The notes under the pieces: model-generated
Told to the model about the DNA's origin: nothing
Database searches by the model: none
The model's input: only the letters and a program-made list of their open reading frames with translations
Made by a program: the position numbers and the translations under genes
Source: a virus
Length of the DNA stretch: 64,000 bases
Strand: one strand, 5' to 3'
Virus record (IMG/VR): IMGVR_UViG_3300046499_000680
Span: 1 to 64,000 of that record
Shown: piece after piece, positions 46,969 to 60,145 of the stretch
How the letters are laid out: every line of letters begins with the position of its first letter
How positions within the stretch are numbered: the first letter of the stretch is position 1

Positions 46969-47092
46969 GGGCGAAAGGATGTAGGCTCGAACAGCGCCGA
47001 GCCGGTTAGGAACAGCGAGCAGCCGGGGTTCGACTCCCCGGTGGGGCGGTGGGCTACCGTTGCCAGCTCGACCAGTACGGTCGGCTCGGCGT
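46969..47092 (+). ncRNA. candidate tRNA-like structured RNA (permuted; Y RNA/YrlA-like?)
   Basis: T-arm CCGGGG-TTCGACT-CCCCGG inside closing stem 46994-47005/47081-47092; G-U pairs favour + strand. Confidence 0.45.
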
Positions 47093-50650: not shown

Positions 50651-51242
50651 CCGGCGCTCCTTTGTAGTTCGATTTGTGCGGGTCGAAGCCCGGCAGGATC
50701 AGCTCGTAAGCGTCCTCGTCGGGCATCGTGAAGCTGAAGTCGATGACGATGGGGATGCCCGTTCGCTCGGCACCAACAGCGTCGGTCAGGTACTCACGGT
50801 ACAGTTCCGCCGCGCGCCAACGCGGCAGGGGCAGGAAGTACGTTGCGCGATCGGCCCAGAGCTTCGAGAACTCGGGGATCGCCTCGCCGAAAATCTTCTC
50901 GACATCGAACGGCTGGTCGCACGTTCGGCGCAGGACCACGATGCGATCGGGATCGGCGCCCGCGTCCTCGGGGTCCGGCTCCACGCAGTCGTCACAGTCG
51001 CAGTCTTCGGTGGTGCAATCCTCGTCTAGCGACGATCCGCTCCAGCCGCACGCCTGGCACTCGTAGCCGTCGTCCGTGACATCGACGTTGCCCTGGTAAT
51101 CGGGTTCGGCGTTGCGGTCAACCTCGCCGTCGTCATCAAGCGTGTAGCGGATCAACTCCGTCGCCAGCTCGCGCTGGACCAGCGAGCCGCTGTCTGCTGG
51201 CTCCGAGCAGTGCGGGCAGCCGACAAAGGCGCGTTCGCACAT
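50622..51242 (-). CDS. acidic Cys-rich hypothetical protein
   Basis: CPHC, CQAC, CxxxDCDCDDC. Confidence 0.6.
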   Translation of the reverse strand: MCERAFVGCPHCSEPADSGSLVQRELATELIRYTLDDDGEVDRNAEPDYQGNVDVTDDGYECQACGWSGSSLDEDCTTEDCDCDDCVEPDPEDAGADPDRIVVLRRTCDQPFDVEKIFGEAIPEFSKLWADRATYFLPLPRWRAAELYREYLTDAVGAERTGIPIVIDFSFTMPDEDAYELILPGFDPHKSNYKGAPDDGHVAACV

Positions 51243-51246
51243 CGGA

Positions 51247-52458
51247 TCAGCTCCCGATGCCGAGCAGCTTCTTGACGCTCTCGCGCGAGCCGGTGATGTC
51301 CTGGGCGAGCTGGTCGAGTTCGGCGGTCTCATGTCCTTCCTCTTTGCCGTTGTCGATCGCATCGCCGACGCGCTGGCTCAGCTTCTTGAGCATGTTCGAC
51401 ACCACGCCGATGTTGCCCATCAGTTCGCTGTCGGGCACGCTGCCGTCGGCGGGCATTTTCTGCTGCAAGTCGCTCAGCGCGGCCTGCTGCTCGTCAAACT
51501 CGCCGCGCAGTTTGGCCGCCTTCTTGGCGACGGCGCCTGCGTAGTCCAGCGTCAGCTCGTACGCAGTGCTGTGATCTTCGGGGTCGCTCCAAAGCACATG
51601 CTCGAAGACCTTCATGTCCTCGACCGACACCTCAGTGCGGCCGGTCAGCGCCGCCGCCGCGAGCATCAGCTTGACACCCTCGAACAGGCGCCTGGCGCTG
51701 ATCGTCAGGTTCTCCGACTCAGCGCGGGAGCGCAGTTCGACCAGCGCCTTTTTCACGTTCGGCGGGACTTCGACCTCCGTGGCCGTCGCCTGTATGGCCG
51801 CGATCTCCTCGGAGGTGACCAGCGTGGGCTTGGCGACGATCGGCTCGCCGCGTCCACGGGCGAGCTGGCCGTCGAGTACCTGCGTCAGTCCTTCGCTGGT
51901 GCGGACATGCTCGACCATCTTGGTGATGCCGAAGCGGTCGCGGAAGGCCCGCAGGTCGTCGCGGTCGGTGCCGGGCAGCTCGTTCGATGCACCCACGCAG
52001 GTCCACAGCGGGACGGTCATCGAGTGCCCGTTGTTGTGGAAGATGCGCTCGTTGATGATCGACAGAAGCGCGTTCAGCACGGTGCTGTTCGCCTTGAAAA
52101 TCTCGTCCAGGAAGGCGACGTTCGCCTCCGGGAGCTTGTCGCGCGTGATCCGCCGGAATTCGTCGTTCTCCAGCGCCGCGAGCGAGACCGGGCCGAGGAC
52201 CTGATCGCTCGGGGTGTCCTTCGCCAGCAGCACCTCGAAAAGCGAGGCGTCGGCGATGTGCGACATGAATTCGCGGATCAGGAGGGACTTCGCCACCCCT
52301 GGTTCGCCGATGAACAGCGGGTGCGAGCGGGCGATGATCGAACGGACCAGCAGGTCGATCTCGACTTCGCGCTCGGGCAGCCCAGCTTTCAGCTCGGCGA
52401 TGACGTTCTGGAGTTTGTCGGCGGGCGTCACCTTCGTCTTCGTCGCGGTCGCGGCCAT
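51247..52458 (-). CDS. MoxR/RavA-like AAA+ ATPase
   Basis: GEPGVAKS, FLDEIFKANSTVLNALLSIINERIFHN, GASNELP, AFRDRF, ISARR. Confidence 0.9.
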   Translation of the reverse strand: MAATATKTKVTPADKLQNVIAELKAGLPEREVEIDLLVRSIIARSHPLFIGEPGVAKSLLIREFMSHIADASLFEVLLAKDTPSDQVLGPVSLAALENDEFRRITRDKLPEANVAFLDEIFKANSTVLNALLSIINERIFHNNGHSMTVPLWTCVGASNELPGTDRDDLRAFRDRFGITKMVEHVRTSEGLTQVLDGQLARGRGEPIVAKPTLVTSEEIAAIQATATEVEVPPNVKKALVELRSRAESENLTISARRLFEGVKLMLAAAALTGRTEVSVEDMKVFEHVLWSDPEDHSTAYELTLDYAGAVAKKAAKLRGEFDEQQAALSDLQQKMPADGSVPDSELMGNIGVVSNMLKKLSQRVGDAIDNGKEEGHETAELDQLAQDITGSRESVKKLLGIGS

Positions 52459-52464
52459 AGTGTG

Positions 52465-53214
52465 TTAATTCCTTCCGTTCGTTCGGGTCAACTGCGGATA
52501 AGGGAAGTCGGGTACCAAGCGCTTGACCGCGAGCTGCGTCAGCTCTTTCAGGTCGGTGCGCAGTTCTTCGCGGCCCTGCTCAATCAGCTTGTCACCATAG
52601 GCGCCGCCGTTCGAGGTCGGGCTACGCATGAAGGTCCCAAAGACCGGCGGAATCACGACCTCGCCGCGCTCGAAGTGATCGAGCTGGTGCGGCCAGTGTT
52701 CCTGCTCGGCATTGGCTTTCGAGCAGCACTCGCGCGGCTGCTCCCAGTTCTGCCATGCGGTGATGATCTTGTCCGCGTGGCGTCGAAGTTTCGCCGGATA
52801 GGTGGCGACGACTCGGGCGACGGCCGCGAGGAGCGCGGGGTCGATAGGCATCTCGCAACTCCCGTTGGGATTTACGTGCGCGCCGTGTGCGTACGGCACC
52901 AACCCGTTCGCGGGATCGACCAACCAGGTCAATCCGCCCGCGCGCTCGATGCGCGCCGGAGTGAAGGTCGCTATTCGATCCAGGGTCACGTTCGTGAACC
53001 AGCCCTGATCGTTCGGCGAGCCTGGCCCGCGAAGGTCGATGGTCACGCCGTCGGGCCGGTACATGGCGATGATCGTGTCGTGCAGCTTCAGCCCGACCAG
53101 CTCGTCGGCGTAGTAGACCAGGCGCGTGTTCCGCGCGATCTTCTTGGTCGCCAACACCTCGCCGGACCGTTTGTGCTTCAGGGTCTCGACGGCATCGTTC
53201 GCAGTGGCAATCAT
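52465..53214 (-). CDS. conserved phage hypothetical protein
   Basis: KIARNTRL...LKLHDTII...GWFTNVTLDRI motif. Confidence 0.65.
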   Translation of the reverse strand: MIATANDAVETLKHKRSGEVLATKKIARNTRLVYYADELVGLKLHDTIIAMYRPDGVTIDLRGPGSPNDQGWFTNVTLDRIATFTPARIERAGGLTWLVDPANGLVPYAHGAHVNPNGSCEMPIDPALLAAVARVVATYPAKLRRHADKIITAWQNWEQPRECCSKANAEQEHWPHQLDHFERGEVVIPPVFGTFMRSPTSNGGAYGDKLIEQGREELRTDLKELTQLAVKRLVPDFPYPQLTRTNGRN

Positions 53215-53390
53215 GCGCCACCGCTCACGTCTTCAAAGGTCGGTTCGCTGTCTTCGATCGAGAGCTGCACGTCCTCGGGGCCGTCCGTCAGCCCGCTGGC
53301 GATTTCCTCGGCGCGTTCGCGGGCCTGCTTCTCAGAGTCAGCGCCGACGCGAAGCCAGCACTTGAACTCGTAGACGCCTGCGCCGGTCAT
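53211..53390 (-). CDS. small hypothetical protein (not in ORF track)
   Basis: MTGAGVYEFKCWLRVGADSEKQARERAEEI..., ATGA overlaps both sides. Confidence 0.5.
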   Translation of the reverse strand: MTGAGVYEFKCWLRVGADSEKQARERAEEIASGLTDGPEDVQLSIEDSEPTFEDVSGGA

Positions 53391-53722
53391 CGTTCGGCCG
53401 CCTCTCGCAGCTCGCGCTCGGTCAGTTCGATGTCATCGGCCGGACGGGCGCGAAGCTGGTTGCACAGCTCGGCGAAGGCTCGGAAATACTCGGGGTTCCC
53501 ATCCAGCTCGCCCGGCTCCAGCAGCGAGCCTGCCACCTCGATCACGTCGCTCGCGCTCAGCACGCGCTCAGACTCGAAGTCGTCCTCTCTAAGCCCGTCT
53601 TCGATGGCGTCGGTGTCGCTGACGATCGCCTCGGGCACATAGCGCACCGTGCAGCCTTCGCTGCCCGTGAAGGTCTCGCCGTCGTTCAGCACGACGATCT
53701 CCGAATGGTCGGGGTGGTGCAT
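53387..53722 (-). CDS. acidic hypothetical protein
   Basis: GGAGG RBS; IVVLNDGETF. Confidence 0.6.
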   Translation of the reverse strand: MHHPDHSEIVVLNDGETFTGSEGCTVRYVPEAIVSDTDAIEDGLREDDFESERVLSASDVIEVAGSLLEPGELDGNPEYFRAFAELCNQLRARPADDIELTERELREAAER

Positions 53723-54120
53723 CAGCGGAACCTCCGTTCGAGGTAGTGAGGATGGTTGAGCAGGAAAAGGTCGTGCATGAGGCACGTTCGCGGGAGGCGG
53801 GTGGAAGGTTCGCGCCCGTCGAAGATGCGCAGCAGGTCGGTGAAGACTTTGCACGACTTTGCAAAGTGGCCGCCGTCGGCGAGTTCGCGGCTCAGCCCGA
53901 TCGAGCAGGTCGCCAAATCGTATTCGGCGACGATCGACGGCGAGGCGAAGGCCGGGACGATCTGAGCTTCGACAGCACAGGCCGGGGGCGTTGCGTTCGC
54001 TGCCACGTTGTAGGCGAACTGAGCCGACGGCGACAGCGGCGCGGCGCGGGCCGTCGTCGCCAGCAGCAAGAGCATGAAGGCGCAGGCGCCTAGCGCGAAG
54101 AATCGCTTGGCGGGCAGCAT
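53722..54120 (-). CDS. secreted hypothetical protein
   Basis: Basic-hydrophobic-ARA signal peptide; paired Cys. Confidence 0.55.
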   Translation of the reverse strand: MLPAKRFFALGACAFMLLLLATTARAAPLSPSAQFAYNVAANATPPACAVEAQIVPAFASPSIVAEYDLATCSIGLSRELADGGHFAKSCKVFTDLLRIFDGREPSTRLPRTCLMHDLFLLNHPHYLERRFR

Positions 54121-54332
54121 CAGCGCGTCACCTGCTCGCGCGGCTCGCGGCGGCCGGAGATCGTCACAGATCGGCCGAAAACGCAGAAGCTGAGGTTCGC
54201 CGACAAGTGCGTCGGCGGCGCGAATTCGCCGTCGTCCAGATACCGGCAGATGACGAGGTGCGGACGCTGAAACCAGACACGCCGAATCCGCCCCTGACGC
54301 TGCCGTTCGAGCGTCCCGATGTTGACGGCCAT
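54120..54332 (-). CDS. small hypothetical protein
   Basis: TGATG coupling both sides. Confidence 0.45.
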   Translation of the reverse strand: MAVNIGTLERQRQGRIRRVWFQRPHLVICRYLDDGEFAPPTHLSANLSFCVFGRSVTISGRREPREQVTR

Positions 54333-54625
54333 CAGTTGAACACCGCCCGGCCGAGCCGATTCAGGTGCTGGCCGAGCCGTTCGTGGAAGACCTCGACCTC
54401 TGGGTCGTCGTCCGCCAGGGCGGCCGTGACGGACCTGGGAATCTCGAAGACCCTGGAGGTGCCGTTCGCCGTGTCGTGGGCGCAGACGATGGCTGAGCCG
54501 TCGCCGTCGGCAGCGAGCGCGTGATGCTCGGTGAAGTCGGGCAGCTCGGCGACCATCCCGAGGGCGTCCATGCCAGCCATCGCGGCGAAAGCCTCGTCGG
54601 TGTCGATGATCGGGAACGTCTGCAC
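54332..54625 (-). CDS. hypothetical protein
   Basis: GGAGGT RBS. Confidence 0.6.
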   Translation of the reverse strand: MQTFPIIDTDEAFAAMAGMDALGMVAELPDFTEHHALAADGDGSAIVCAHDTANGTSRVFEIPRSVTAALADDDPEVEVFHERLGQHLNRLGRAVFN

Positions 54626-54697
54626 GGCTCACCTCCATTCGTTCGTAGGATCGGGCAACTCTAACCCTGTTCGTAGAAGACTTGCGACCAGGGGGTC

Positions 54698-54802
54698 AAA
54701 AGATCGTTCGATGCGCCGCCGCGTCGCGTTTTAACCCTGCGCTAGCACGGGCGTCCCCGCTGATGAACAGGACTGGCCGACTCGACGGCGCATCCAACGA
54801 TC
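54698..54802 (-). terminator. long hairpin (25-bp arms, 51-nt insert) with U4 tail
   Basis: 54702-54726 vs 54778-54802, 22/25 WC plus one G-U on minus strand, followed by TTTT. Confidence 0.5.
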
Positions 54803-54809
54803 CGACCTT

Positions 54810-55004
54810 TCAGGGTCGCTTGTCGGCGAGCTGGTCGAACCCGTAGCCTCCAACGGTGGTCCCGTTTTCGTCCCGGATGCGACCGCTTTGCTCGCCCATC
54901 ACCTCTAGTTCGTGCGCAGCTCGGCGAAGGGCATCCGCCACATGCTGAGCCGTTGACATGAGTTCGTTGCCCATGTCGATGTCGAGGCTGAAGTTCTCGG
55001 GCAT
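54810..55004 (-). CDS. small hypothetical protein
   Basis: GAAAGGAA RBS; FSLDIDMGN...IRDENGTTVG. Confidence 0.6.
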   Translation of the reverse strand: MPENFSLDIDMGNELMSTAQHVADALRRAAHELEVMGEQSGRIRDENGTTVGGYGFDQLADKRP

Positions 55005-55020
55005 CGGGGATTCCTTTCCG

Positions 55021-55540
55021 CGTTGTAGAGCCATGTTCGTCACCACGCGCAAACACGTAATGAGGGAGGCTCGGATTAAGGTCTTCCGCACGGCTTACGT
55101 CCCGTTCGCCATCGCGATCGTGGACTGCATGCGGGAAGGTCTTCCCCGAGGCCAGATCGGCGCGTTCGCAGGGAGCAACAGAGCTTTGCTACTGGCGACG
55201 TACATCCTGGCGCTGCGGGGAGAATCGGCGCGCTACTCGGCTCGCTCGCAAGCGGCCGATCGCACGCGCCTAAAGTCTGAACTGGAGTTGCAAGTTCGTA
55301 ACGCCCGCCTGTTCGCTCTCGGGCCGCAGCGGGCTTCGTGCCATCCAAGCACGGCCCCAGTGACGTACTTACCCTTGGTCCAGGCTTTGCACGTCCGTTC
55401 GTAGACTTACACGCAACGAGTGATTCTGTTCGTTGCGAAGCGCAAACTTACGCTCCCGGAGGATGTGTGGGTCTGTGCTGAACGCTTGCTTTCGCGCCCG
55501 GCCGCTCGCTGTTCGCTACAGGCGGGGCGGATGGCACGAA
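55021..55540 (-). ncRNA. candidate large structured ncRNA / leader
   Basis: ~520 nt without credible ORF; several long-range complementarities and local hairpins; G-U pairs favour minus strand. Confidence 0.5.
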
Positions 55541-55583
55541 AACAAGCGGCGGCGCGGGCACCCTTGCGGGCACCCGCGCCGCG
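55537..55583 (-). terminator. GCAA-tetraloop hairpin followed by TTGTTTT
   Basis: GCGGCGCGGGTGCCC-GCAA-GGGTGCCCGCGCCGC just after stop of 55587-55862. Confidence 0.6.
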
Positions 55584-55586
55584 CGC

Positions 55587-55862
55587 CTACTCTTTCGGCG
55601 GGGTGAGCAGATGCGGGAACAGCGCGGTCACAGCGGTGAGCTGGACGCGCTTCATGCGACCGCCGCCGCGCGGCCTGTACTCGACGTACTCGACGCCCGA
55701 GGGCGACTGCACGATGTAGGCGTCCCCGTGTCCGCCCGCGACCTCGCAAGGCCCGAACAGCTCTTTGTACTGCGGGGACGCTTTGGCGGGCTGCGCCTGC
55801 GTGGCCGCGCGCTCCTGCGCGGCCTGGGCGATGTCCAAAGCGCTCTTGACGCTTGAAGCCAT
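55587..55862 (-). CDS. first gene of leftward early arm, hypothetical
   Basis: GGAGGT RBS. Confidence 0.6.
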   Translation of the reverse strand: MASSVKSALDIAQAAQERAATQAQPAKASPQYKELFGPCEVAGGHGDAYIVQSPSGVEYVEYRPRGGGRMKRVQLTAVTALFPHLLTPPKE

Positions 55863-55893
55863 GTTGCGATACCTCCATGTCGGGTTTCACGGG

Positions 55894-56174
55894 GTCAACC
55901 GCGAGTGTTCACCCCCACCCGTTAGCCCATGTCGGGCAACGGGCAAGGTTCTACCGTCGGGGATACAACCGCCAGCATTCACCCCCCGCCGTGGCCGCCG
56001 TGCCTAGCCCACGCCTAGGGGTGAACACTGCCGGTTATCCCACTGAGGCCGGTACAGCACCACCGGCCCACCGGGATCACCCCCCGCCGTGACCAACCGG
56101 CGGCGGCCAACCCTTCCTAGAGAATCGACCCGATCCAGCCTGAGAACGGCGGGGGGTGAACACTCCCGGTTGAC
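55894..56174. repeat. cluster of five TCACCCC-core repeats in divergent intergenic region
   Basis: Copies at 55905(+), 55978(+), 56018(-), 56077(+), 56146(-); outer pair forms 21/22 inverted repeat. Confidence 0.7.
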
Positions 56175-56206
56175 GTAGTGACCCTAGAACATCCGTCTAC
56201 GCGCAC

Positions 56207-56234
56207 TTGCGCGCGGGGGGAGTAGGTTTAACAT
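56207..56234 (+). promoter_or_regulatory. possible sigma-A type promoter TTGCGC-N16-TAACAT
   Basis: Upstream of 56268 ORF. Confidence 0.35.
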
Positions 56235-56267
56235 GGGGTCATGGTCACTTCTACGAAAGGTGCTGAC

Positions 56268-56474
56268 ATGGTTTCCAAGAGGCAGCTACTCCAAGAGCTT
56301 CAGCGGCGGATTGACGCCGCCCGCGATGCCGCCGACTGGCGCATGGCCGAGCTTTACACCTGCACCGCGCTGAGGATTCAGCGCGCGCCGAACCTTGCGG
56401 TAGCGGGCCAGACGGCCCGCGAAGTCGCCGCCACCGATGCCCGAATCAGCCTCACGGATCGGATCGGCCGATGA
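56268..56474 (+). CDS. small hypothetical protein
   Basis: GAAAGG RBS; ATGA overlap with next gene. Confidence 0.5.
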   Translation: MVSKRQLLQELQRRIDAARDAADWRMAELYTCTALRIQRAPNLAVAGQTAREVAATDARISLTDRIGR

Positions 56475-57547
56475 TCTCCGCAAGCAAAGCTGAGGCCCAA
56501 GCGGCCAAGGATGGCGCCAAGGCTGGCGCCCAGCAGCGGGACCGGGAACTAGACGAGGCCGCCGCCCAGCATGAGGCGGTACGGCTCGCCGAAGTCTCCG
56601 GGCACGCCGCTACGTGGACCCGCTCCTACAGGGCGGGCACCACTGAGGATGGCAAATCTGACCGGCGCACCGTCACTATGCGGGAGACCGCAAGGCGGGA
56701 AGCCGACGCCGCCACCCTGCTAGCCCTCACGGGCGAAGCGGTCCGCCTAGCAGCGGGTCGCCTACGGGGTAGGCACGGCATACCTGAGCTATCGGGTGAC
56801 GAGCGCGCGGACCTGCGGTCCGCCCTAGTCACCAAGCTGCTCAGTGAGTGCGAGCCGGGCAAGTTGCCCGACCGCAACAAGCTGACCCGCGCCTACCTGG
56901 TGAAGCGCGCTGAGGGTCTGGTCCTCAACGACCCCGACCGCAAGCGCGCCGATGCCAGTGACGACGGCATGTCCCCCGAAGACATCGCCGCCGCCGCTGA
57001 GAGCAAGGCCCGCGATCGGCACGACCGCCACGATCCGATGCTGAACCGTGGCGTTGACGGCACCTGGCCCGAAGTAGAGGCCGGCTGTGCCGCCCTCGCC
57101 GACGCGGGCGAAGCGATCAGCCAGAAGGCAGCCCGGACGGCCGCCTACCTGGTCGCGGGCGGGTCGGTCAGGAACGACTGGTCCGACGCATGGGGGACCA
57201 GCGAGGGCTACGCCGCTACGCGGCTAGTGCCAGAGGGCGCGGCCCAACTGCGCGACGCACTGAGCGCGCTAACCGATTCCCCTCTCTACCTAGCCATAGA
57301 AGCAGCCCGCCTCCAGGACACGGACACGCTGGATCACCTGGAGGCTGCTCGCCGATGGCTCGCAGCGGGACTGAGCGAGTCGCCGGACCGAGCGCGCGCC
57401 CTGGTCGAACGCAGATGGCGGACCGAGCTTCCGCCCGACGAGCATGCGCCAGTGCAAAGCCGGACCGACAAACGGATCATCGTCACCTCGGATCGGTCGC
57501 GCGCTGTCGCCGCCGAGCGAGGCGGTTGGACCAGCCGTCCCAGCTAG
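56471..57547 (+). CDS. divergent ECF sigma-like protein
   Basis: ADLRSALVTKLL..RAYLVKRAEGLVLND (region 2-like); ISQKAART..WGTSEGYAATRL..GAAQLRDAL (region 4-like). Confidence 0.4.
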   Translation: MISASKAEAQAAKDGAKAGAQQRDRELDEAAAQHEAVRLAEVSGHAATWTRSYRAGTTEDGKSDRRTVTMRETARREADAATLLALTGEAVRLAAGRLRGRHGIPELSGDERADLRSALVTKLLSECEPGKLPDRNKLTRAYLVKRAEGLVLNDPDRKRADASDDGMSPEDIAAAAESKARDRHDRHDPMLNRGVDGTWPEVEAGCAALADAGEAISQKAARTAAYLVAGGSVRNDWSDAWGTSEGYAATRLVPEGAAQLRDALSALTDSPLYLAIEAARLQDTDTLDHLEAARRWLAAGLSESPDRARALVERRWRTELPPDEHAPVQSRTDKRIIVTSDRSRAVAAERGGWTSRPS

Positions 57548-57950
57548 TAGGTGGCAAGCGGGATCGTCCAAGATCGGACGGTCCCGGCCACCCCCCCCTT
57601 TCTCACGCCTGGCCGCCCGGCGCTCGAAACGAGTACAACAGACACCCACGCTCAGTACCCCCAAAAAATTCGGCTCTGGAAGTGGGATTGCGGGGAATCC
57701 CCGGAAATCGACCCTCCACCTCCCCAGCCTGACCCCCTCCAGACCCCCTGGTAACCCTCCGATATGCCCCGGAAAGGGTCCCATCCCGAGGGGGAGAGGG
57801 CCTAGACCCCCCTGGAACCCCTCAGAAGGGACGAGAAGACGGCTACGCCGGAAGTAGCGAGCAATTTCCGACGAAAATGTCGCCGTAAGCGTCGCAAGGT
57901 CTGGTAGGGTCCCGCCTCGGCCCAGATCAGCGACGACCAGGAGGCTCCAG

Positions 57951-58289
57951 ATGGCGAAAGCAGGACCAGCCCGCGCAGCGGGCAGACTCGCTCCCCCGGC
58001 GACCGGCCGGGTGGTCCCGAGGCAGCGGACGGTCAGGATCGAGACCAGGAGCGGCACCGTCCGCACCAAGAAGGGCGCCGACACGCCGTCGGTCGAGCTG
58101 GAGCTGGGCGGGAGCGAGCGGCTGCTGGACTTCGTGATCGGCGCCGAGGGCGGGCCGGGGCTGCTGGCCTCGATCGAGGCGCGGGTCGCGTTCGAGAAGC
58201 GGAAGACGATCGACTGGAGCTGGGAGGCGACGGTCGAGGTCGAACTGCCGGGCCTGAAACCCGCCCGCCGCCGCAAGGCGGCCTCCTGA
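57951..58289 (+). CDS. hypothetical protein
   Basis: AGGAGG RBS. Confidence 0.6.
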   Translation: MAKAGPARAAGRLAPPATGRVVPRQRTVRIETRSGTVRTKKGADTPSVELELGGSERLLDFVIGAEGGPGLLASIEARVAFEKRKTIDWSWEATVEVELPGLKPARRRKAAS

Positions 58290-58762
58290 TGCCGGAGGCG
58301 CGCTCGATCCTGTTCATCCCCGACGCCGACACTGACGACGCCGCCAGCATCGAGCTAGCCAAGGTGGACATCGCGGTCGCCGGGAATCGCGGCGTCATCA
58401 AGGACCGCCACGGCGACGCCGACCAGGTGCTGCTGGCGCTGCGGGCCGGGCTGGCGGCCCGCGACCTCTCCTCGGAGCCGGAGGCGCCGACCCTGCTCGG
58501 CGTCCCCCTGACCGAGATCGCGGCGCTGACGATCGACGGCGCCCACTGGTTCGAGGTCTTCGGCCCGACCCTCCAGCTCTCGGCCCCCTCCGGCGGCCCG
58601 GTGCTGCGGTTCCGCATCGCCCAGACGCCCGGCGGGAAGAAGGGCAGGTTCGGGGTCTCCCAGGGCGACACGATCGCGGTGCGCGAGATCGCCGTTCGCG
58701 GCGTCCAGCGCAAAGGCGGCGAGCCGCTGACGCCCGATCCTCGCGATCCGGGGCAGCGCTGA
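58289..58762 (+). CDS. hypothetical protein
   Basis: TGATG coupling. Confidence 0.6.
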   Translation: MPEARSILFIPDADTDDAASIELAKVDIAVAGNRGVIKDRHGDADQVLLALRAGLAARDLSSEPEAPTLLGVPLTEIAALTIDGAHWFEVFGPTLQLSAPSGGPVLRFRIAQTPGGKKGRFGVSQGDTIAVREIAVRGVQRKGGEPLTPDPRDPGQR

Positions 58763-59142
58763 TGGCGACCACCTGGGATCAGCTCCTGGGCGAGTCGGCG
58801 CTGCTGGTCCGACTGGGCCAGCTCGTCTTCATCTGGTCGAAGGACACCTCGATCGTCAAGGTGGTCCGCGCCGCGCCCAGCGAGGGCGAGGCCGAGCTGT
58901 CGGAGGCGATCGCCACCCTCGACGTGGCCCTGGAAGTCGAGGTCCCGCCGGGCCTCGTCTATGACGGCGACCCGTTCGCCGCCTTCTGCCGGAAGTTCGT
59001 CGGCGCCGAGGGCGGCTCGATCACCGCCGAGGAGGCGGTCAACCTGTTCGCCTGCTTCTCCGGCGGCCAGGTGGACGGCGACCTGCTGAACTCGGTCACG
59101 CCGAAGCTCGAAGCCATCGCCGAGCGGGAACTGGTGGCCTGA
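58762..59142 (+). CDS. hypothetical protein
   Basis: TGATG coupling. Confidence 0.6.
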   Translation: MATTWDQLLGESALLVRLGQLVFIWSKDTSIVKVVRAAPSEGEAELSEAIATLDVALEVEVPPGLVYDGDPFAAFCRKFVGAEGGSITAEEAVNLFACFSGGQVDGDLLNSVTPKLEAIAERELVA

Positions 59143-59621
59143 TGTCGATGATCCGCAGGATCAACCTGCTCGACGGGCCAGAGGGACTGGAGCTGCACAA
59201 ACACGACAACGGGATCATCGTCTACGGGTCCCGGCACGCCAAAGAGCCGGTGCGGGTCGGCATCTTCTCGGCGACCGACGAGCAGTGGGACGGCCTGGTC
59301 GATCACTTCGTCCACGGCGAGCGGCCGATCCCCCAGCAGCCCCCGGCGCCGGTCACCGAGACCTGGCTGGAGCTGCTGGCGCCGGTCGCGGAGATCGCGA
59401 TGTACCAGGCCGCCACCTGGTGGGGCATCCGCCGCGCCGTTCGCAAGGCGGGCGGGCCGCCGTGGGCCGTCAAGCTCGCGGGTCGCCTCGGCCTGCTGAT
59501 CGCGTCCCCGCAGAGCTTCAAGGCCGCCGAGGTCGAGCCGAAGGAGCTGGGCGCCAAGATCGGCCAGAAGCTCACCGACTCGATCATCAGCGACGACGGC
59601 GAGTTCGAGGTGCCGCGATGA
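59142..59621 (+). CDS. hypothetical protein
   Basis: TGATG coupling. Confidence 0.6.
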   Translation: MSMIRRINLLDGPEGLELHKHDNGIIVYGSRHAKEPVRVGIFSATDEQWDGLVDHFVHGERPIPQQPPAPVTETWLELLAPVAEIAMYQAATWWGIRRAVRKAGGPPWAVKLAGRLGLLIASPQSFKAAEVEPKELGAKIGQKLTDSIISDDGEFEVPR

Positions 59622-60145
59622 TCGAGGCCCCGACCCCCAACGAAACCGTCCTGGTCGGCGAGGCCGACGGCCACACCCTGCCGCCTGTCCTCGAAGGCCG
59701 GGAGCTGCCGATCACGGCCACCGTCGTCGGCCCGGCCGGTTCCGGCGACGAGCTGTTCGTCGTCACCCTCGCCGAGAAGCACCAGCAGCGCATCCAGGTC
59801 CACCGCGCCCAGCTCTACCCGCCGACGATGAAGTTTCGGTCGGGCAAAATCAGCCTGGAACTGGTCAAGCAGGCGGCCGTGGTCATCCTCGAACACGACG
59901 GCTCGAACGGCAACGGCCTGGCGATCGACGTGCCGCTCGGCTGGATGCCCGACCTGGAGCAGTTCACCCTCTGGTGCTGCCGCTTCCTGGGGATGGTGAT
60001 GGAGGACAAGCCGGTCTTCACCGTCGTCAGTGACCCGACGGCGCGCGGCGACGAGGAGGACTCGTTCTCGGTCGCGCTGACGGGTCCCATCGGCGACATC
60101 GAGCGCGGCACCGTGCTGGCGGCGGTCCCGGAGGCGTCCCCCTGA
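59618..60145 (+). CDS. hypothetical protein
   Basis: ATGA overlap, GAGGT RBS. Confidence 0.6.
   Translation: MIEAPTPNETVLVGEADGHTLPPVLEGRELPITATVVGPAGSGDELFVVTLAEKHQQRIQVHRAQLYPPTMKFRSGKISLELVKQAAVVILEHDGSNGNGLAIDVPLGWMPDLEQFTLWCCRFLGMVMEDKPVFTVVSDPTARGDEEDSFSVALTGPIGDIERGTVLAAVPEASP

Follow-up and report, generated by a model that had tools for sequence, protein, structure and literature searches.

The phage genome examined here is an IMG/VR record of 83,201 bp that has direct terminal repeats, is rated complete and has a G+C content of about 65%. The window, i.e., the whole stretch of DNA that was analysed, comprises bases 1 to 64,000 of this record. Transcription diverges at about 55.9-56.2 kb, where a set of 28-bp repeats is located. 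Gene 1, which opens the leftward arm (55587-55862, minus strand), encodes a 91-residue protein of unknown function, with 18 metagenome protein homologs of 60-99% identity, and is followed directly at its 3' end by an intrinsic terminator (T1). The second gene of this arm (gene 2; 54810-55020, minus strand) encodes 64 residues and most likely starts at ATG 55004, since its PHROG matches begin only at residue 33 of the longest form and a ribosome-binding site, GGAAAGGA (55012-55019), is located 7 nt upstream of this codon. With this start, the gene-free stretch between the two genes spans 55005-55586 (582 nt). A second terminator-like long hairpin (T2; 54702-54802, minus strand) lies directly 3' of gene 2; its 25-nt arms are 88% complementary, enclose a loop of 51 nt and are followed by CTTTTG. 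Two CTACGAAC words are located between this hairpin and the ribosome-binding site of gene 3.

Searches of the neighbouring genes against Pfam, PHROGs and NCBIfam returned just weak PHROGs of unknown function, for gene 2. A structure model of the gene 1 product (pLDDT 69.6) had no Foldseek match at E ≤0.001 and no usable match in the ESM Atlas. When the same model was compared by VIA-align, the top match (Z 5.3) was within noise and no RNA-binding fold was found, the single-strand binders of PUR-alpha and PC4-like type appearing at Z 4.2-4.5 with an rmsd of about 5. The divergence point (55896-56172) was found to carry five copies of a repeat of about 27 bp in mixed orientation, each with TGTTCACC or its complement, an octamer that the alpha primase-helicase of phage P4 binds as its iteron. 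As a lead only, these repeats may mark an origin as well as operators. Elsewhere in the window, a second long gap in the crude gene map (50651-51246, minus strand) proved to be a real gene for an acidic, Cys-rich protein, with start MCERAFVGCPHC, that GC3-based filters had missed.

The sequence-only reading had described the gap downstream of gene 1 as having no credible ORF. A gene caller did place one there, a 123-residue ORF on the plus strand (55033-55404), which we judge to be spurious. Besides the call itself, the G+C content by codon position (0.63, 0.52 and 0.74) is weakly coding-like and would suit a real orphan protein transcribed against the early operon. The third-position value is, however, below the 0.82-0.90 of real genes, and the third codon positions of the ORF coincide with those of the frame of gene 2. 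No relative was found among 5.8 billion clusters, and an exhaustive search of 1.8 billion representatives returned no true relative; the ORF's other match was to a 2085-residue FG-GAP repeat protein, a chance match in which the repeats of the target inflate the score. Similarly, nothing matched when the ORF was compared by tblastn to five related loci. In soil contigs of at least 80% likeness, the frame is shifted by 1-nt insertions at 55374 and, in contigs from three runs, at 55077. The G+C-rich homologous gaps have open stretches of 100-146 codons in most frames, and no antisense ORF was common to these gaps. The ORF also overlaps non-coding blocks that are kept by relatives without such an ORF. 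Thus, neither homologs, nor a maintained frame, nor a coding pattern of substitution were detected, and a plus-strand protein is highly improbable. With its one called ORF lacking relatives and broken by single-nucleotide indels, the gap (55005-55586) is non-coding; the earlier statement stood after these comparisons.

Relatives of the locus were collected by a metagenome scan with an alignment of gene 1 (A1), which yielded five loci (L003 to L007) and, with the window, a set of six sequences. In all six, gene 1 and its terminator are followed by 210-640 nt without a credible ORF. Since this gene-free gap recurs in every locus, the untranslated spacer is a conserved feature of the phage group. 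The genes 3' of the spacer vary between loci, and in L004 an ORF of 54 codons is inserted within the spacer, with the remaining blocks after it. Nucleotide similarity to L003 and L004 extends through the terminator to 55483. No match was found by blastn in a phage GenBank collection, no prophage relative was found in genome contigs, and no true relatives were found among viral contigs searched with gene 1, gene 2, the gene 1 alignment and two DNA patterns. Four further candidates (L001 and L008 to L010) were discarded as chance matches, including L009, an AT-rich phage matched within coding sequence. Short soil contigs from four metagenome runs share about 93-95% identity with the window over 55012-55130 and then diverge at 55026 or 55012, and one of them has 327 unrelated letters in place of gene 2. 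These breaks mark a recombination boundary just 3' of a conserved sequence block (block 4, below).

T1 (55539-55582, minus strand) has the make-up of an intrinsic (Rho-independent) terminator, with a 15-bp G+C stem, a GCAA loop and the tail CGCTTGTTTT. It is located directly 3' of the stop codon of gene 1 and is kept in the six sequences, across which its helix shows G-U pairs and compensatory changes. This supports the earlier placement of the gap, which opens the leftward early operon immediately downstream of such a terminator. A second hairpin, HP1 (55484-55547, minus strand), follows and reuses the U-tract of T1, in that GCUUGUUUUCG pairs with CGAAAGCAAGC to form its basal stem. The apical loop of HP1 presents CGAACAG (55509-55515), which is invariant in six of six sequences. 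An alignment of the six sequences was folded by RNAalifold, and in the resulting model, scored on the same alignments that had yielded it, T1 and HP1 together had 91% of cells paired compared to 80.5% in shuffles, with eight compensatory pairs, a result that 0 of 500 shuffles reached. Within HP1 (helices 2 to 4), about 90% of cells were paired and five pairs were changed on both sides. The G-U pairs of T1 and HP1 are many and pair only when read on the leftward strand. Elsewhere in the leftward arm, an intergenic block at 46985-47045 (plus strand) forms a hairpin on the opposite strand with CGAACAG at the edge of its loop; it includes an 18-mer that has 17 identities to the region of the HP1 loop at 55497-55514 (blast E of 0.15) and runs into a T-arm-like CCGGGGTTCGACTCCCCGG. 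No tRNA was detected in the window by ARAGORN.

Further downstream, HP2 (55227-55270, minus strand) consists of an outer stem of 6-7 bp, an internal loop, an inner stem of 4-5 bp and a loop of 13-15 nt. This two-stem architecture was found in five sequences with 100% of cells paired, and 5 of its 11 pairs showed compensatory change when scored, as for HP1, on the alignment that gave the structure; again, 0 of 500 shuffles reached this result. These conserved hairpins, with their G-U pairs and compensatory changes, bear out the RNA-type character that had been proposed for the gap. A local hairpin noticed earlier at 55412-55437 (minus strand) is also real, its 8-bp stem (CGCAACGA/UCGUUGCG) presenting CGAACAGAAU, a loop word that occurs as well in the HP2 of relatives. 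Likewise, the duplication of AAGGTCTTCC could be verified. A small hairpin, AGCAA/UUGCU, followed by CGAAC (55164-55195, minus strand) has 91% identity over 33 nt to L005. Two blocks are conserved in addition to the hairpins, and for neither was an RNA fold supported by covariation. Block 3 (55280-55298, minus strand), ACGAAC followed by the near-palindrome CAACTCCAGTT, is kept in L003, L004 and L005; it precedes HP2 in the window and follows HP2 in these three loci. Block 4 (55027-55065, minus strand; CCTCA..CGT.TT.GCGC..TGGCTCT) has 23 specified positions that are invariant in the five of five sequences having the block; it occurs as a single copy in the genome and is conserved in sequence and not in structure.

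The minimum free energy of the gap gave folding z-scores of -3.27 for the minus strand and -1.64 for the plus strand, and the homologous gaps ranged from -1.8 to -5.7 on both strands. Such scores point to extra local hairpins and not to one large fold; as they are negative on both strands, thermodynamics does not pick the strand. The sequence-only reading had gone further and proposed an RNA of about 520 nt with four mutually crossing long-range helices, i.e., a multi-pseudoknot or oligomerising RNA. The four pairings do exist on the minus strand, namely a (55529-55540) with a' (55335-55346) at 12 of 12 positions, b (55518-55526) with b' (55304-55312) at 9 of 9, c (55499-55509) with c' (55248-55258) over 11 bp including one G-U, and d (55460-55466) with d' (55202-55208) at 7 of 7, and the partners a' to d' follow in the same succession as segments a to d, as claimed. 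When the 525 nt were compared to 1000 dinucleotide-preserving shuffles, however, the number of perfect stems of at least 7 bp (10) was close to the shuffled mean (10.1), and chains of at least four mutually crossing helices arose in 31% of the shuffles. A crossing chain totalling at least 36 bp was reached by 5%, and a perfect 12-bp stem by 1.4%, such that the crossing pattern is at chance level and a-a' alone is somewhat unusual. This pair is also present in the centroid fold. Exact 12- to 13-mers in common with the gap are frequent genome-wide.

Conservation of the crossing helices was likewise not observed. Segments a, b and c all lie within the conserved local hairpin HP1, c' covers the inner stem and loop of the conserved HP2, and the minimum-energy fold places segments a to c in local hairpins. 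In homologs, the best downstream partners of the segments equivalent to a, b and c were of 5-8 bp at scattered distances, which is the level expected by chance. The region that holds a' and b' (55300-55480, minus strand) is missing from L003 and L004, and L005 to L007 align to it only in patches. A single contig, from run X5, has a variant within a' (55339 T>C), the sole one seen; it converts A-U to G-U, which keeps the pairing and is uninformative. With no homolog having matching long-range partners, the multi-pseudoknot reading is not supported, and as a model of the gap it is close to refuted. The appealing idea that the gap encodes a giant phage RNA of a new, pseudoknotted kind does not hold.

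Comparison with known large RNAs gave a similar result. The region 52000-58000 was searched on both strands against Rfam by cmscan at E up to 10, and a limit of E 1 was applied to the five related loci; neither GOLLD (RF01998) nor ROOL (RF03087) was detected in either search, and no family approached its gathering score, whether in this region or in the relatives. A GOLLD- or ROOL-like identity, raised earlier by analogy, is therefore unsupported. The gap resembles these RNAs in being several hundred nucleotides of phage-borne non-coding sequence, but it is without conserved long-range architecture, and its relatives have just small hairpin modules in variable order. Local hairpins alone covary; long-range pairs with covariation, as would mark a large ornate RNA, were not found.

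The strongest signal of the gap turned out to be a short word that had been mentioned only in passing. Eight CGAAC words are present on the minus strand of 55035-55515 (first bases 55515, 55432, 55401, 55315, 55298, 55168, 55108 and 55039) and none on the other strand. By an unbiased k-mer scan of the six gaps against dinucleotide shuffles, CGAAC was observed 48 times compared to 7.2 expected (z 16), far ahead of all other pentamers and in six of six spacers, with 48 copies in the sense and 3 in the antisense orientation. The flanks are weakly specified, (A/C)(A/G)CGAAC(A/G)G, and the spacing is irregular. The word itself is strict, as none of its 15 single-mismatch neighbours was enriched (ratios of 0-1.6). 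Recognition by G-U-tolerant base pairing is unlikely, given that the wobble neighbours of CGAAC are among those not enriched. CGAAC positions were moderately more unpaired than average (0.52 vs 0.35), and several copies are shown in the loops of conserved hairpins, including the first, which is located in the HP1 loop 72 nt past the stop codon of gene 1.

Two kinds of known DNA site with similar words were considered and rejected. LexA operators of the alphaproteobacterial type are direct repeats of GAAC-N7-GAAC. The operator of the Gram-positive type is the palindrome CGAAC-N4-GTTCG (PMC8270828). Within the six gaps, no CGAAC-N4-GTTCG and one GAAC-N7-GAAC were found, and the irregular spacings together with the lack of palindromes or direct repeats do not fit an array of LexA (SOS) operators. 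An array of promoters for ECF sigma factors, with a -35 element of GGAAC type, would be expected to have a -10 element that is conserved and follows the AAC word at a distance of 16-18 nt. When 47 sites were aligned, information content was at most 0.15 bit everywhere from +10 to +44; thus, a -10-like partner is lacking.

The array is sharply bounded at its upstream end. Gene 1 of all six sequences (1686 nt) has no CGAAC, and the right arm adjoining gene 1 in relatives (1.2-1.9 kb each) has 0-1 copies per strand. Upstream of gene 1, the relatives have in total 6 copies, both strands counted, in 7 kb, whereas the genome as a whole has about 2.3 per kb per strand. Both CGAAC and its complement are thus nearly missing upstream of gene 1 in L003 to L007, as they are from 56000-58000 of the window. 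At its other end, the array extends across the early-left genes, with roughly one copy every 100 nt. In the early-left coding sequence, 49 sense copies were found compared to 25.0 ± 4.1 in synonymous-codon shuffles (z 5.8), and in the downstream genes of relatives 39 compared to 20.2 (z 6.0); the antisense counts in both gene sets were at expectation. Density is higher at 49-56 kb (7.0 per kb) than at 40-49 kb (3.7 per kb), i.e., strongest near the promoter.

The main rival to a signal in the transcript is a polar signal at the level of DNA, in which CGAAC would be a Chi-like word, a primase- or helicase-loading word or the mark of another strand-reading enzyme, and the gap itself would be ordinary intergenic DNA with terminators and RNA-stability hairpins. 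Chi, which is read by RecBCD or AddAB, and KOPS are polar DNA words, and Chi is over-represented across the host genome and species-specific. Similarly to these, CGAAC is short, strict and orientation-dependent, with a one-strand excess that passes through coding and non-coding DNA alike. Iteron-like repeats are located 300-600 bp from the gap. In addition, the minus-strand word is raised in the plus-strand genes at 56-62 kb, where 12 copies were found compared to 6.7 in synonymous shuffles (z 3.9); ten GTTCG, the complement of CGAAC, lie within 58190-59755. This excess at 58-60 kb agrees more readily with a signal on the DNA strand than with one on the transcript, but it rests on 12 sites. 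The late plus-strand genes have a mild plus-strand excess (z 3.3), such that the two arms carry CGAAC in opposite orientation. By contrast to Chi, CGAAC is confined to one phage operon; its array opens at a terminator and is densest in an untranslated leader, where the word is exposed in hairpin loops. The abrupt start at the transcription terminator and the absence from gene 1 and about 2 kb beyond argue that the boundary is set by transcription and not by replication or DNA ends. On this evidence, we consider a DNA-level signal unlikely.

A second alternative takes the gap to be a mosaic junction of ordinary parts, namely a terminator, mRNA-stabilising hairpins and block 4 as a promoter or operator for variable cargo genes, with the CGAAC excess a by-product, e.g., of a recombination preference or mutation bias, that has no reader of its own. 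Much of the variation among relatives is consistent with such a junction: the order and number of blocks differ, a small ORF has entered the gap of L004, and the soil-run contigs break at positions just past block 4, the block that is maintained in sequence and not in structure. Block 4 may indeed act as a promoter or operator, and expression of the downstream genes would then not have to rely on transcripts that pass T1. A search of the gap revealed no sigma-70-like promoter, however, and on inspection the spacing of block 4 fitted neither a sigma-70 nor a sigma-54 promoter. A by-product would also not explain why one exact pentamer is in about sevenfold excess when its 15 neighbours are not raised, or why its counts in two independent sets of genes are twice those expected from synonymous codons. 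A junction of ordinary parts is thus possible, but doubtful as a full account of the locus.

The reading that we prefer is that 55005-55586 is the untranslated spacer of the leftward early operon, probably transcribed leftward, and is built as a string of small local hairpin modules and blocks, partly common to relatives and varying in order, instead of one large pseudoknotted fold. The descriptive side of this account is well supported and covers the non-coding status and conservation of the gap, its covarying hairpins, and the enrichment, strictness and limits of CGAAC. Judged from sequence comparison, it would act as a cis-acting early leader RNA with CGAAC words that are read by a putative factor, and we give this tentative reading a probability of roughly 0.4. 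A reader at the level of the transcript is favoured since the array begins at the terminator, is densest in untranslated RNA and appears in the loops of conserved hairpins. Transcripts that pass T1 would carry many CGAAC sites, and a sequence-specific factor would read these sites on the RNA. Candidate readers are the product of gene 1, an immediate-early gene that is itself free of sites, and a host RNA-binding protein; as no convincing fold match was obtained for the gene 1 model, the former is a proposal only. The outcome may be to set the read-through of the terminators that follow or to influence the stability or translation of delayed-early messages. Several observations count against a leader RNA of this kind, namely the negative folding z-scores on both strands, the just moderately unpaired state of CGAAC, the minus-strand excess at 58-60 kb, the lack of an RNA-binding fold match for the gene 1 product and the conservation of block 4 in sequence.

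Among known systems, the stretch would appear to work most like the multi-site protein-binding RNAs and, by its position, like the control regions of lambdoid early operons. CsrB and RsmZ have many GGA words in hairpin loops, and the trp leader has 11 GAG/UAG triplets for TRAP. Like these RNAs, the gap repeats a single short word many times at irregular distances, on one strand, in what is predicted to be an untranslated RNA, with several copies in hairpin loops. Enrichment of a short word on the transcribed strand and its exposure in loops, two properties expected of RNAs of the CsrB kind, were both found. Unlike in CsrB, RsmZ or the TRAP leader, the word is CGAAC, the reader is putative and the array continues for kilobases into coding sequence. 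The early transcripts of lambda (N/nut) and HK022 (put) carry cis-acting RNA hairpins, and lambdoid early operons resemble this one in having a small first gene, a terminator, RNA hairpins and further terminators (here T2, after gene 2). In the nut and put systems, however, one or two defined hairpins lie upstream of the terminators that are overridden, whereas the elements described here follow T1. The put element is a pair of neighbouring stem-loops that comes soon after the early promoter and precedes the terminators that it suppresses; HP1 and HP2 both come after T1, are 200-250 nt apart and could only act on T2 and beyond. The repeated unit of the gap is, moreover, a word of 5 nt with neither a boxA nor a boxB-type stem, and gene 1 has no similarity to lambda N.

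A broader generalisation, which we regard as a long shot, is that CGAAC serves as an 'address' word on the delayed-early transcripts (or on a DNA strand) of unrelated phages and so separates immediate-early from delayed-early expression; its reader would be either a host component that is widely conserved or small proteins of the early phage genes, the gene 1 product among them. The cultured Parabacteroides phage PDS1 (MN929097; PMC10773633) has no such array, with 69 CGAAC, 61 GTTCG and no cluster. In the phages examined here, an uncultured family from soil with genomes of 80 kb, a long untranslated leader is maintained after the first early gene, and one exact pentamer occupies one strand of the entire operon downstream, in excess of what codon use predicts. 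Such a strict and sharply delimited signal, which persists although genes are exchanged, implies a reader that has not yet been named. Should this reader be a host factor or an early protein that binds RNA, phages would have a novel means of marking and controlling their delayed-early messages.
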